Below, piece by piece: positions 19,011-23,758 of a stretch of 28,607 nucleotides of DNA (its first letter is position 1; each line of letters starts with the position of its first letter). The notes under the pieces are model-generated. The model was not told the DNA's origin. It did no database searches and saw only the letters and a program-made list of their open reading frames with translations. The stretch covers positions 1-28,607 of the forward strand of contig JAUXAK010000001.1 in assembly GCA_030619955.1 (NCBI GenBank), given 5' to 3'. A program made the translations under genes and the position numbers. The DNA is from an archaeon (GTDB taxonomy: Archaea; Nanobdellota; Nanobdellia; Pacearchaeales; UBA284).

Positions 19011-19163
19011 TATCTAACCTCTTTTTCTTTTACTTTTTTATGCTTTTTTAAGCATTAGAATGTTTAAAAATTTTTGCTTGTTTAAGGTTCACACAAATTT
19101 GGAATAAAAAAGAAAGATTTTGAATAATAAAATTTATAAGGTTTCTTAGTTTTTAATGTTCAT

Positions 19164-19247
19164 GCGGGAGTGTCGGAGTGGTCAAACGAGCAGGACTTAA
19201 GATCCTGTGGCTTAGTGCCTGCGCAGGTTCGAATCCTGTCTCCCGCA
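19164..19247 (+). tRNA. tRNA-Leu(TAA)
   Basis: Acceptor GCGGGAG/CTCCCGC plus A73. Anticodon arm CAGGA-CTTAAGA-TCCTG. Long variable arm, T-loop TTCGAAT. TATA TTTATAAG at 19133-19140. Confidence 0.98.
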
Positions 19248-19261
19248 TTAAAGCTTTGAAA

Positions 19262-19756
19262 ATGGTTAAGATACTTGTGGTTAATGAGGAAGATAATATT
19301 ATTAATTCCAAGGAGAGGGGAACATTAAATCAAGAGGAGATTTATCGTGTTTCAGCATTATGGATCAAGGATAGTAAGGAACAAATTCTTTTAGCTAGAA
19401 GAGCATATGCTAAGAAAAAAGATCCAGGAATGTGGGAGCCTGCTGTTGCAGGCACAGTTGAAGAAGGTGAAACTTATGAGTCTAATATTATAAAAAAAGC
19501 TGAGGAAGAGCTTGGTTTAGATAATATAAAATTAGAAAAAGGACCTAAACACAGAGTAAAGGGAAAACATAATCATTTTACACAATGGTTTATCTTATGT
19601 GTTGATAAAGACATAAATGATTTTAAAGTTAAAGAAGATGAAGTAGCCGAAATCAGATGGTTTAGTAAGGATAAAATATTGAAACTTATTAAGAACAATC
19701 CTAAAGAGGTTATTGAGGCTCTTAAAAAGAATATTAATTTATTATTGGAAATATGA
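19262..19756 (+). CDS. Nudix hydrolase (Idi/YfcD-like)
   Basis: YRVSALWI, ILLARRA..K..PGMWE.AVAGTVEEGET..EEELGL, VAEIRWF. Start moved to 19262 because the track's start lies inside tRNA-Leu. Confidence 0.88.
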   Translation: MVKILVVNEEDNIINSKERGTLNQEEIYRVSALWIKDSKEQILLARRAYAKKKDPGMWEPAVAGTVEEGETYESNIIKKAEEELGLDNIKLEKGPKHRVKGKHNHFTQWFILCVDKDINDFKVKEDEVAEIRWFSKDKILKLIKNNPKEVIEALKKNINLLLEI

Positions 19757-20751
19757 ACAAAAAAATTTACCTTTATTTTCATGATGATTTTGATGGAATT
19801 GTTTCTTGTGTTTTAGCTTTTTATTTATTAAAAGAACTAAGTTTTAAACCAATAATTGGAAAGCCTGTTTACTCAGAAGAAATTCTTTCTTGGAGAAAAC
19901 TGAAAATTAAAGTAAAGAAACCTTTTGCTTCTTTGGATTTACCTTATAGAAAAGATGCTTTGGTTTATTTTGATCATCATAGTTCAAATAAACCTTCTAA
20001 AATCAGCAAAATCACAAAGTACTGGAAATTTAAGCAAGCAGATTCATGTGCCCAAGTTATTTTTGATTATATTAAAGACAAAAATTTGTTAGGTAAAAAA
20101 TCAATATTTAGAGAGCTTGTCAAGAAAGCAAATATCGGCGATGCTGCTTTGTTTTCTAAGTTTGGAATTCCTCCCCTAGAAACAATAAAACCAAAAAGAG
20201 CAGCAGGAAAAATTGCTGTTTTACTTGGAAATTTCAAATATGATAAAGGGCTGAGAAAAAAGATAATAAATGATTTAATAAAAGAACTGGATTTAGAAAA
20301 AATAGCTAAGAAAAATTATATAAAAGAAAGATATAAAAAAATTTGGCCAAACATCAAAGTTTCTTTAAAAAAATTTAAAGAAAATAGTGGTTATGCCTCC
20401 CAGTTACATAAAAAATTTGGCTTAGTGACTTATAAAACTCTTTCTTATAGGTTTATGAGATTTGCTCCAGCTGTCTTTTATCCAAAATCTCTGGTGTGGA
20501 TAGGGTTAGTAAAGCAAAAAAAAATTTATTCTATAAAAATTTCAAAAAATCCATGGAATCACAAGTCAGACATTCTTTTTAAAAAAGGATTGCATATTGG
20601 CAATATCTTAAAAAAATTTGGTGGGGGAGGGCATGCAAGTGTTGGTGCTGCCCAATTTACATCTTATAAAAAAACCAAAGAAAGTATGAAAATTGTAGTT
20701 AAGGAAATAGAAAAGAATCTTCTGAAATTGAAATCCAAGAGCAAAGAGTAA
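19753..20751 (+). CDS. DHH/DHHA1 family phosphoesterase (NrnA-like)
   Basis: HDDFDG, FDHH, DSCA, C-terminal GGGGHASVGAA. ATGA overlap with the Nudix gene. Confidence 0.9.
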   Translation: MNKKIYLYFHDDFDGIVSCVLAFYLLKELSFKPIIGKPVYSEEILSWRKLKIKVKKPFASLDLPYRKDALVYFDHHSSNKPSKISKITKYWKFKQADSCAQVIFDYIKDKNLLGKKSIFRELVKKANIGDAALFSKFGIPPLETIKPKRAAGKIAVLLGNFKYDKGLRKKIINDLIKELDLEKIAKKNYIKERYKKIWPNIKVSLKKFKENSGYASQLHKKFGLVTYKTLSYRFMRFAPAVFYPKSLVWIGLVKQKKIYSIKISKNPWNHKSDILFKKGLHIGNILKKFGGGGHASVGAAQFTSYKKTKESMKIVVKEIEKNLLKLKSKSKE

Positions 20752-20782
20752 TGTTTAAAAATTCTTTTTTCTTTTATATGAT

Positions 20783-21046
20783 GGGTAGGTTAGGCTGGCA
20801 CGCTAGCCCTGTGCCGTTTGCAAATGGGCTTTATGGCAAGCTGCAAGAGAAGGAGTTATATATTTGTTAGTAAGTCCTGACTTGGACGTTGAGGTCTTGT
20901 CCTGCTTGATCTTGCCCTAGCAAACTGGGTCAGTTCCGGAAGGAGGCAGCCCTAAGTTAGAGTTAAGATGCTTGTAGGGTTGCAGGACTGAGGAAGAGCC
21001 AGGGTAGCTTTCTGATAAGTATAGAAGCAAATTCTCGAACCTGCCT
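20783..21046 (+). ncRNA. ffs: Archaeal SRP RNA (7S), short form of about 264 nt
   Basis: Helix 8 GGGTCAGTTCC-GGAA-GGAGGCAGCCC. Terminal helix GGGTAGGTT/AACCTGCCT. Helix 5 GTCCTGC(20899-905)/GCAGGAC(20982-988). Alu-like 5' region. TATA TTTAAAAA at 20754-20761. Ends are approximate. Confidence 0.93.
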
Positions 21047-21056
21047 GCTTTAGAAA

Positions 21057-21629
21057 ATGAAAAAAAGAGGACAATTTTTTATAATTGGTGCAGTTATTCT
21101 TGGAATACTAATCTTGGGCTTAGCTACGACTTTTAATATTACATTAAAAAAAGATGAAATTTCCCAGGAAAAGTTTAATGCAATGTGTCAAAACTATGAA
21201 AAAGAGGTTTTTGAAATAAGTAAATATACAATAAACACTCAAAACAAGAGTAATGAGCCAGAATTAATAAAAAATTTTACAATAAAATTCTTAAATTATT
21301 CAAGAACTGTTGATCCAAATTTTAGACTTTTGTATGTTTATGGAAATAATAAAAATGTCACAATTTTCAATTATATTAATCATACCCTCAACATCGATAT
21401 AACAAATGGCACTGAAAATTATCCTATAGAACAATTACAAAGTTGTGATGTCCATGATATTTATATTAATGATATAAGTTTATGTATAAATAGCATTGCT
21501 AATGATAGTATAAAATGGATTAATATCACAAATGGAAAAATTAATAAAAAGTATTCTATTGCTGATGATGAATGCTTTTATTTTATAGCAAGAACAACGA
21601 AAGAGGGTGAAGAATATTTTTGCGAATAA
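21057..21629 (+). CDS. Type IV pilin-like protein (class III signal peptide)
   Basis: MKKRG|QFFIIGAVILGILILGLATTF, then a polar Asn/Cys-containing domain. Confidence 0.75.
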   Translation: MKKRGQFFIIGAVILGILILGLATTFNITLKKDEISQEKFNAMCQNYEKEVFEISKYTINTQNKSNEPELIKNFTIKFLNYSRTVDPNFRLLYVYGNNKNVTIFNYINHTLNIDITNGTENYPIEQLQSCDVHDIYINDISLCINSIANDSIKWINITNGKINKKYSIADDECFYFIARTTKEGEEYFCE

Positions 21630-21655
21630 AAAACAAAAATAAAATAAATAAAAAA

Positions 21656-22147
21656 ATGCAAAAAACAAAAAAACTAACAAATAAAAAAGGAATAAGTGTG
21701 CTTATATCTTATGTTTTACTTATTAGTTTAGCATTAGCAATGGCAGCTGCTGCTTATATATTTCTTAAACCCTTTGCTGAAAAACCCTTGCCAGAAGAAG
21801 CCTGTCCTGCAGGTGTAAATATTGTGCTTGAAGATTATAATTGTTATGATGACGATGGCCAGAAAAAAATAGATATAACTTTAAAAAATCGAGGCTTATT
21901 TAATGTAACTGGGGTGACAATTAGAATGATAAATGAAACAGGTGAATATCCTTTTCTGGAAGGAGGAAAAATCAACCCTTCTTTATCAGGGGAAGATGTT
22001 TTACCAGTCGGCACAACAAAAGAAGCATATTTAATTTATGCTAGTGCTATTTCACATATAAAGATAATGCCATTTAGAAAAGATTCTAAAGGATATCAAT
22101 CATATTGCACAGATGCAATTGTTATCATACCTGTAGAAGGCTGTTGA
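21656..22147 (+). CDS. Archaeal type IV pilin-like protein
   Basis: NKKG|ISVLISYVLLISLALAMAAAAYIFL, with Cys pairs. ATG at 21656 preferred over TTG at 21620. Confidence 0.85.
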   Translation: MQKTKKLTNKKGISVLISYVLLISLALAMAAAAYIFLKPFAEKPLPEEACPAGVNIVLEDYNCYDDDGQKKIDITLKNRGLFNVTGVTIRMINETGEYPFLEGGKINPSLSGEDVLPVGTTKEAYLIYASAISHIKIMPFRKDSKGYQSYCTDAIVIIPVEGC

Positions 22148-22192
22148 TAAAAAGATATTTAAATTTAATAAAATATATAAAATAAATAAAAG

Positions 22193-22660
22193 ATGGAAAA
22201 AAACAGAGAAAGAAAAAAGAAGAAAAAAGGAGTTTCACCTTTAATTGCTACTGTGTTGCTTATTGTTGTAGCAATTTCTCTTTTTACAATTATATTTCTA
22301 TGGATTAGAGGATTTCAACGTGAATCTATTCTTAAATTTGGCACACCAATTGAAACAACTTGCATGAGCTTAAATTATGAAATAAAATTTCATCCAGATA
22401 AAACTCTAGAAATAATTAATAATGGAAATTTTCAAATTTTCAGAGCAGATGTTTATATTACAGACCAAGAGGGTTCAACAAAAAAACTTGGAGTTACGGA
22501 TGGAGATCTTTTAGAAAACATTCTTCCAGCAAGCAGTGCAAGAATATCAGTCAGTGATTGTGAAAAAATAAAAGTAATTCCAGTCTTGCTTGGCACAACT
22601 CAGGCAGGTGCTGAAAAAGAACATGCTTGTGAAAACCAGGCTAAAACTATTTTATGTTAA
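22193..22660 (+). CDS. Archaeal type IV pilin (archaellin/pilin N-terminal motif)
   Basis: KKKG|VSPLIATVLLIVVAISLFTIIFLWI is a canonical archaeal pilin N-terminus. Confidence 0.9.
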   Translation: MEKNRERKKKKKGVSPLIATVLLIVVAISLFTIIFLWIRGFQRESILKFGTPIETTCMSLNYEIKFHPDKTLEIINNGNFQIFRADVYITDQEGSTKKLGVTDGDLLENILPASSARISVSDCEKIKVIPVLLGTTQAGAEKEHACENQAKTILC

Positions 22661-22725
22661 TAGAAAGATTTTTTAATGTCTTTCTCTTAAAAAAGAAATA
22701 AAAAATAAAGATAAAATAAATAAAA

Positions 22726-23223
22726 ATGAAACAAAATAAAAGAGGTATTGCACCAATAATTGCTACTGTACTATTAATTGTTATAGTGCTTGCAAGTATA
22801 GCCTTGATTATTGGTTTTGTAGTGCCATTTATGCAGGAACGAATGGGAACAGCAGAATTATGTTACAAAGCACAAGGAATACAAATTGACTCGCAAGCAA
22901 CATGTTATGAGGATGAGAATTTAATATTAAAAATAGTGTGGAGTGGCAATGAACAACTTGATTTAACAAAAATCAGATTGTCAGTTAGTACAGCAACAGA
23001 AACAAAATCAATAGAAATTCCTGGAGATGTAGATGGTGAATTACCACAACATCCTGGAGAAGCAAGAACCTACACATTAGGATATGGTGGGGGTAGTTTA
23101 GGATTTGAAGATAATTTCAAAACAACTCCTTTAACTGCAGTTTCAATTGCACCTGTGATAAAACCAGAAAAAGGAAATGAAATAACTTGTGATATTAAAG
23201 AGATAGCTATAGAACACTGTTAA
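22726..23223 (+). CDS. Archaeal type IV pilin (archaellin/pilin N-terminal motif)
   Basis: NKRG|IAPIIATVLLIVIVLASIALIIGFV. Confidence 0.9.
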   Translation: MKQNKRGIAPIIATVLLIVIVLASIALIIGFVVPFMQERMGTAELCYKAQGIQIDSQATCYEDENLILKIVWSGNEQLDLTKIRLSVSTATETKSIEIPGDVDGELPQHPGEARTYTLGYGGGSLGFEDNFKTTPLTAVSIAPVIKPEKGNEITCDIKEIAIEHC

Positions 23224-23233
23224 TCTTTTAAAG

Positions 23234-23758
23234 ATGAAAAGAAAAGAAGGAGTAATATGGGTTTCTACTGTTCTTTATATTATGATTAGTCTTGCTATTA
23301 TTAGCATTGTGCTTGTTGCTGTCAAACCAAGAATTGATTCTGCTCAAGACAAAGCAACTATTGAGCAGACAATTATATTATTAAATGAGATAGATTCAAC
23401 AATCACAAGAGCTGATATAACCCAAGGTACAGTACTTAAACAGGAATTTAAAATGTCCAGGGGCTTGCTTACAATAGACTCAAAAGAGGATTTGATAGAA
23501 TGGCAGTTTTCAAGCAGTTATCAATACAGTGAAACTGGCATGCCAATTAAAATCGGAAAAATAAAAGTGCTAACACAAAAAGCAGCTCCTTGGAATGTCA
23601 CATTAACTTTAAATTATGCAAACATGAATTTAACTTATCTGGGTGAGGATGAAAATTATATACTTCAGCCAGCTGAAATCCCTTATAAATTGTTTATGGA
23701 AAATAAAGGGCCAACTGTAGCTGAGGATAAAAACCAGATTGATATTTATGGAATTTAA
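23234..23758 (+). CDS. Pilin-like protein (atypical class III signal peptide)
   Basis: MKRKEG|VIWVSTVLYIMISLAIISIVLVAVKP. Same operon as the other pilins. Confidence 0.7.
   Translation: MKRKEGVIWVSTVLYIMISLAIISIVLVAVKPRIDSAQDKATIEQTIILLNEIDSTITRADITQGTVLKQEFKMSRGLLTIDSKEDLIEWQFSSSYQYSETGMPIKIGKIKVLTQKAAPWNVTLTLNYANMNLTYLGEDENYILQPAEIPYKLFMENKGPTVAEDKNQIDIYGI

Follow-up and report, generated by a model that had tools for sequence, protein, structure and literature searches.

Does an archaeal SRP RNA need helix 6, and what kind of particle would it build without it? The question is raised by an SRP (7S) RNA gene within a 28,607-nt stretch of DNA from a Pacearchaeales archaeon (GCA_030619955.1, contig JAUXAK010000001.1), referred to here as the window. 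The helix-6 tetraloop is the main docking site of SRP19, and in canonical particles SRP19 covers helix 8's GGAA tetraloop. An earlier note, made from the sequence alone, had proposed that the RNA, about 264 nt long, retains helix 1 and the Alu domain, lacks helix 6 and belongs to an SRP19-independent particle. It regarded this as an independent reduction comparable to one described for Thermoproteales. The structural part of this proposal was confirmed by our analysis, and its reading of the particle was supported as the best one available. The evolutionary part had to be replaced.

The gene was identified with cmscan against Rfam, applied to the window and to the whole assembly, as a match to the Archaea_SRP model (Table 1). 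Among the overlapping SRP-clan matches, Archaea_SRP was the best one, rather than the bacterial model. Everything outside helix 6 aligned to RF01857 end to end, comprising helix 1, helices 3 and 4, helix 5, and helix 8 with its GGAA tetraloop. Helix 6, to which the model gives 40 positions after the 5′ strand of helix 5 and before helix 8, had no counterpart base at all in the window RNA; the gap that the earlier note expected in such an alignment is thus there. The score lies about 9 bits above the gathering score of 96.5 bits, and it is this low because those 40 positions are missing. By score, by helix 1 with the Alu domain and by helix 8, the RNA conforms to its Rfam family; the helix-6/GNAR three-way junction is the family feature that it does not have. 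The minimum-free-energy (MFE) fold of the 264 nt was a single rod, in which the two strands of helix 1 pair with each other.

Table 1. Features of the SRP RNA locus (positions in the window)
Feature	Position	Strand	Evidence
SRP (7S) RNA gene, 264 nt	20783..21046	+	RF01857, 105.2 bits, full model (positions 1-317)
Helix 1, 5′ strand (partner 21038-21046)	20783..20791	+	cmscan structure line; MFE fold
Helix 1, 3′ strand	21038..21046	+	cmscan; MFE fold
Alu (small) domain, helices 2-4, somewhat reduced	20792..20846	+	cmscan alignment; comparison with other archaea
S (large) domain, 104 nt, single unbranched hairpin	20888..20991	+	alignment A1 (60 homologues); covariation
Helix 5e/5f, 5′ strand GUCUUG-U-CCUGC (partner 20974-20988, GUAGG-GUUG-CAGGAC)	20894..20905	+	MFE fold, covariation, Rfam consensus
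Connector helix, 5′ strand (partner 20956-20971); sits where the helix 5/6/8 three-way junction would be	20908..20921	+	A1 covariation
Connector helix, 3′ strand	20956..20971	+	RNAalifold consensus; covariation
Helix 8 core: AAAC asymmetric loop 20922-25, symmetric-loop motifs GGGUCAG / GCAGCCC, GGAA tetraloop 20938-41	20922..20955	+	A1 columns; cmscan
TATA-like box GTTTAAAAAT (putative promoter), 21-30 nt upstream of the SRP RNA 5′ end	20753..20762	+	conserved in relatives

The S domain was examined in an alignment of 60 homologues from relatives across the order and the class (alignment A1). Its length was 102-106 nt in all 60 extracted relatives, and the RNAalifold consensus was one unbranched hairpin with compensatory changes in 26 of its 29 pairs. 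In the pairing statistics, which are somewhat favoured by the derivation of the structure from the very alignment that was tested, 95.4% of the cells were paired, versus 37-52% with slid partners, and the covariation score was 0.788, versus at most 0.164 (none of 500 shuffles scored as high). The connector helices (A1 columns 21-25/85-90 and 29-35/75-81) vary freely yet stay paired, with compensatory changes in all 11 of the variable pairs. Across the 60 sequences the motifs of helix 8 that bind protein show little or no variation. The S domain, with its helix-8 motifs intact, is under purifying selection. Helix 6 is gone without a remnant, and only a short connector, whose pairs covary, stands between helix 5 and helix 8.

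The pairings of the S domain drawn by hand in the earlier note agree in most parts with this structure, namely TCTTG (20910-14) with TAAGA (20964-68), CTAGC (20917-21) with GTTAG (20956-60), the AAAC loop and the GGAA hairpin. Its helix-5 pairing of GTCCTGC with GCAGGAC does not: the two segments are complementary, but they are not partners. According to the Rfam consensus, the MFE fold and the covariation, GUCUUG (20894-99) pairs with CAGGAC (20983-88) and CCUGC (20901-05) with GUAGG (20974-78), an arrangement that leaves the usual 5e-type loop. At the other end of the molecule the Alu domain is trimmed, which accounts for the 264 nt of the window RNA versus about 273 nt in other orders. The UGUAAC (UGUNR) motif of the Alu domain is replaced in the family of the window RNA, and helix 4 is about 8 nt shorter than in the other orders of the class. 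Complementarity between the loops of helices 3 and 4 (AGCCC / GGGCU) is still present.

The deletion of helix 6 recurs in the relatives. Across 41 genomes (40 from the same family or order, plus the window's own) an SRP RNA match was obtained in 33, all 262-272 nt long. An even sample of the class gave matches in 109 of 151 genomes, with lengths of 260-279 nt, except for two longer RNAs and one fragment at a contig end. Among the 33 matches of the order-level set only 17 reached the gathering score. These are genuine SRP RNAs that score low because 40 model positions are missing, and standard annotation will therefore miss those that fall below the threshold.

The methionyl-tRNA synthetase of the window is most similar (at most 62% identity) to proteins under the NCBI name Candidatus Pacearchaeota archaeon, with Woesearchaeota and Nanoarchaeia entries next, which makes the organism a Pacearchaeota-type member of the Nanoarchaeota-type DPANN phylum. 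Three further DPANN-type lineages gave the same picture (the first and the last are labelled here as in their NCBI record titles). In the phylum of a Micrarchaeota-labelled MAG, the SRP RNA measured 266-278 nt in 29 of 31 genomes, and SRP19 was found in none of the 31. The closed genome CP070801.1 (record title Candidatus Aenigmatarchaeota) has an SRP RNA of 272 nt and no SRP19 that we could find; in its phylum, four of the five genomes checked for the RNA carry one of 273-276 nt, and SRP19 was found in 0 of 61. The fifth has an SRP RNA of 310 nt (G307:C4:15939-16248). A Candidatus Iainarchaeum MAG carries an SRP RNA of 275 nt, and SRP19 was not found in it. For comparison, a pattern scan followed by cmscan yielded eight non-DPANN archaea with helix 6 (Methanospirillum, a Hydrothermarchaeales MAG, a Thermoplasmatota MAG, a Poseidoniales MAG, BMS3Abin16, SCG-AAA382B04 and two uncultured archaea), whose SRP RNAs are 311-332 nt long. 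Joint alignment placed a block of 42-44 nt with a GNAR-type loop (GGAG or GAAG) between helices 5 and 8 in all eight. This block is missing at the exact same spot in four RNAs, those of the window, of another class member, of the Micrarchaeota-labelled MAG and of the Candidatus Iainarchaeum MAG. The SRP without helix 6 is thus a lineage-wide variant found across at least three DPANN-type groups and in one Iainarchaeum genome. The reduction pictured by the earlier note as an isolated event is in fact common to the whole sampled phylum and to at least two other such groups, besides the Iainarchaeum genome.

The two long SRP RNAs of the class were considered as possible holders of helix 6 and rejected: their inserts lie within helix 8 and not at the junction, and SRP19 was found in neither genome. 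In one of these (G168, 99% complete; 320 nt, L068:1030-1349 (-), contig C97) an insert of about 45 nt follows AACCUGGUCA in the 5′ strand of helix 8, and a UGAC loop replaces GGAA; cmscan wrongly assigned this insert to helix 6. The other (G095; 310 nt, L069:660-969 (+), on the 1.7-kb contig C137) is a second SRP RNA copy, also lacking helix 6, whose helix 8 has an insert of 37 nt in its apical loop, between repeats of GGCCCG(G)AA. This insert, located where the RNA of Thermoproteus is permuted, is a possible splicing-type intron. The MAG shows 2% contamination, and the 1.7-kb contig may come from another organism. In one family of the class sample (f30), RF01857 matched in none of 16 genomes of 90-95% completeness, several of which are single-contig (e.g. 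G066, G080, G091). Presumably the SRP RNA of this family either has diverged beyond the reach of the filtered search or is unusual in some other way.

On the protein side, the window's own genome is of little help. The assembly (480 kb in 62 contigs, 71% complete) gave no match to SRP19 (PF01922), to the SRP54 M domain (PF02978) or to the SRP54/FtsY GTPase domain (PF00448). The search for srp19, srp54 and ftsY suggested in the earlier note found none of the three; at this completeness even SRP54 and FtsY are missing from the assembly, which makes its gene content uninformative. The protein argument therefore rests on the relatives. No SRP19 was found by PF01922 above its cut-off in the 41 relatives, in the 151 class genomes (102 of them high-quality) or in 151 genomes of the phylum (150 of them high-quality); these order, class and phylum samples overlap, and several of their genomes are single-contig. 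Three weak PF01922 matches in relatives were discarded, two being ribosomal protein uS7 genes and one a 111-aa ORF with no Pfam match. The SRP54 M domain, by contrast with SRP19, was present in 38 of the 41 relatives and in all 11 of the high-quality ones.

The sensitivity of the PF01922 search is imperfect. It recovered SRP19 in five of the eight archaea with helix 6 (the three misses being MAGs or a single-cell genome of unknown completeness), and among the named controls it missed Sulfolobus acidocaldarius. For this reason a second profile (A2) was built from five SRP19 proteins recovered in this analysis. A2 found SRP19 in all five further archaea used as positive controls (Methanoculleus, Methanolapillus, Bathyarchaeia, Archaeoglobaceae and Thermoplasmata) at E-values of 1e-24 to 1e-28. 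With the same profile SRP19 was found in 0 of the 41 relatives and 0 of the 151 class genomes; the sole weak match among the relatives was a fragment with five in-frame stops, and it was rejected.

Upstream of the gene, a box of the form (C/G)TTTAAAA(A/G)T recurs at the same distance from the SRP RNA (21-30 nt) in nearly all of 30 order-level relatives. It fits an archaeal TATA box and is a putative promoter. Part of the stretch is present in seven metatranscriptome runs. The metatranscriptome contigs, from four runs of four studies, are confined to 20793-21044 and leave the neighbouring protein genes uncovered; their similarity is 95-99%, and the S domain runs through them without an insertion, deletion or joint. 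Being assembled contigs of close relatives and not raw reads of this strain, they document the presence of the RNA in RNA libraries, not its strand or exact ends. Several relatives have a tRNA upstream of the SRP RNA, its 3′ end (..CCCGCA) about 38 nt away. The window has a tRNA-Leu(UAA) 1.5 kb from the SRP RNA (19163-19248), and between the two is a 332-aa ORF (19753-20751) with weak, below-cut-off similarity to DHH/DHHA1. This arrangement suggests that the ORF was inserted into a conserved pair of tRNA and SRP RNA. Directly downstream of the SRP RNA are five small ORFs in tandem (21057-23758), the first of which (21057-21629) has no Pfam match.

The layout of the window RNA, an Alu domain with helix 5 continuous with helix 8 and with no helix 6, is that of the Bacillus-type 6S/scRNA, which likewise has no SRP19. 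In the Bacillus-type particle a single protein, SRP54/Ffh, sits on the S domain, and the same would hold for the particle of the window RNA. In Bacillus, HBsu is added on the Alu domain. The window RNA differs from the Bacillus type in having the archaeal helix 1 and in fitting the archaeal Rfam model best. Because of these two properties it is an archaeal SRP RNA by descent, while its S domain would work like that of a Bacillus-type SRP RNA. With the canonical archaeal 7S RNA (RF01857, e.g. that of Methanocaldococcus jannaschii; structures 1LNG and 2V3C, listed in PMC2905702) it shares helix 1, the Alu domain, a long helix 5 bearing a 5e-type loop, and a helix 8 that contains an AAC-type asymmetric loop, a symmetric loop and the GGAA tetraloop. 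It departs from that RNA in having no helix 6, no GNAR/GGAA "adenosine clamp" and no SRP19 site. It also differs in its length (264 nt instead of 311-332), in the UGUNR motif, which is not kept, and in helix 4, which is shortened in its family.

The permuted RNA of Thermoproteus tenax likewise departs, in one lineage, from the canonical gene for archaeal SRP RNA. There, however, only the gene order is permuted: SRP19 and the GNAR helix 6 to which it binds are both kept on the permuted, circularised RNA (Plagens et al. 2015, PMC4731332). T. tenax therefore offers no precedent for the loss of helix 6. According to the review of Zwieb and Bhuiyan (2010, PMC2905702), SRP19 genes have been identified in every archaeal subgroup, where they coexist with helix 6. 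The statement that the loss of helix 6 and SRP19 had been described for Thermoproteales is contradicted by both papers. Table 2 of that review has no DPANN row, and the SRP components listed in DPANN genome papers are only SRP54, FtsY and the RNA. Our searches of the full-text literature, by DPANN lineage names and by wording for a missing helix 6, returned no description of the state seen here; subscription papers lay outside these searches and a prior mention is possible. A functional parallel is Haloferax volcanii, which is viable without SRP19, archaeal SRP54 binding 7S RNA unaided (Yurist et al. 2007, to the extent that it is related in PMC2905702 and PMC6098224). The two cases share the point that an archaeal SRP is workable without SRP19. 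They differ in that the Haloferax strain is a laboratory knockout that retains helix 6, whereas in the DPANN groups described here the protein and its RNA site are both naturally missing, across whole phyla.

Taken together, we consider it highly probable that the window holds a functional SRP RNA of a Pacearchaeota-type DPANN archaeon which has no helix 6, in a lineage which has no SRP19. Since helix 6 is absent from the RNA and no SRP19 was detected in the lineage, the particle most likely consists of SRP54 and the RNA. By analogy with Ffh on 4.5S/6S RNA, the M domain of SRP54 would bind helix 8 directly, at its symmetric and asymmetric loops. The clamp between helices 6 and 8 would be dispensable, because archaeal SRP54 binds 7S RNA without SRP19 and Haloferax without SRP19 is viable. 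The uncovered GGAA tetraloop would be free for docking of the receptor (FtsY), as in bacteria, and the retained Alu domain may help to pause elongation, as it does in Bacillus and other archaea. Together with the 5e-type hinge, the Alu domain would preserve the elongated two-site geometry on the ribosome.

A different composition of the particle would follow if a divergent SRP19, or a small non-homologous protein, clamped helix 8 and had escaped detection. DPANN proteins evolve fast, the genomes hold many small unassigned ORFs (e.g. L031), and PF01922 missed Sulfolobus acidocaldarius and three of the eight archaeal genomes with helix-6 RNAs. Yet two independent profiles, one of them successful in five of five controls, gave zero credible matches in more than 300 genomes from dozens of families. 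Moreover, the primary docking site of such a protein, the GNAR loop of helix 6, is absent from the RNA, and SRP19 is dispensable in Haloferax, going by what PMC2905702 and PMC6098224 relate of that work. We judge a hidden clamp protein to be improbable, and the particle of SRP54 and RNA remains our preferred reading.

Two other explanations concern the RNA itself. Helix 6 might be supplied otherwise: a separate RNA could provide it in trans, the same transcript could fold in another way, or it could be rearranged after transcription, as the permuted RNA of Thermoproteus is. Archaeal SRP RNAs can indeed be permuted and circularised (PMC4731332), and two class members have inserts of 37-45 nt in helix 8. 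Against this, the gene of the window follows the order of the entire Rfam model, from one strand of helix 1 to the other, its unbranched fold is backed by covariation, and the same contiguous sequence appears without joints in the contigs from RNA libraries; the rare inserts lie inside helix 8, and at the position of helix 6 there is no GNAR hairpin. This explanation is very improbable. Even less credit is due to the idea of an artefact or a decaying pseudogene, in which an incomplete MAG would contain an SRP RNA that is degenerate or wrongly assembled. An assembly of 62 contigs that is 71% complete, and an Rfam score just 9 bits over the threshold, would be in keeping with it, but over 130 independent assemblies, single-contig genomes among them, show the same architecture. 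The invariant functional motifs, the covarying stems, the conserved promoter box and the presence in metatranscriptomes speak against it as well, and make it barely conceivable.

The absence of helix 6 and SRP19 in these archaea may be an ancient loss or a primitive state. If DPANN are basal, the two-component SRP could be the ancestral archaeal state. Bacteria also have neither helix 6 nor SRP19, so that a primitive absence requires one gain, as against a gain plus a loss. We regard the primitive reading as rather unlikely. If it is true, helix 6 and SRP19 would be an innovation of the remaining Archaea that was later inherited by eukaryotes.

Reviews treat SRP19 and helix 6 as a universal trait of archaea and eukaryotes that separates their particles from the bacterial ones. 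The lineages described here are a natural exception, a very large and diverse part of the Archaea that has neither and whose SRP is built like that of Bacillus. They would provide a natural test of what SRP19 and the clamp between helices 6 and 8 are for. Annotation is affected as well: roughly half of these RNAs do not reach the Rfam gathering score, and PF01922 is unsuitable as a marker gene in these lineages. The architecture of the SRP also offers a new character for the debate on the branching position of DPANN and on the time at which SRP19 originated.
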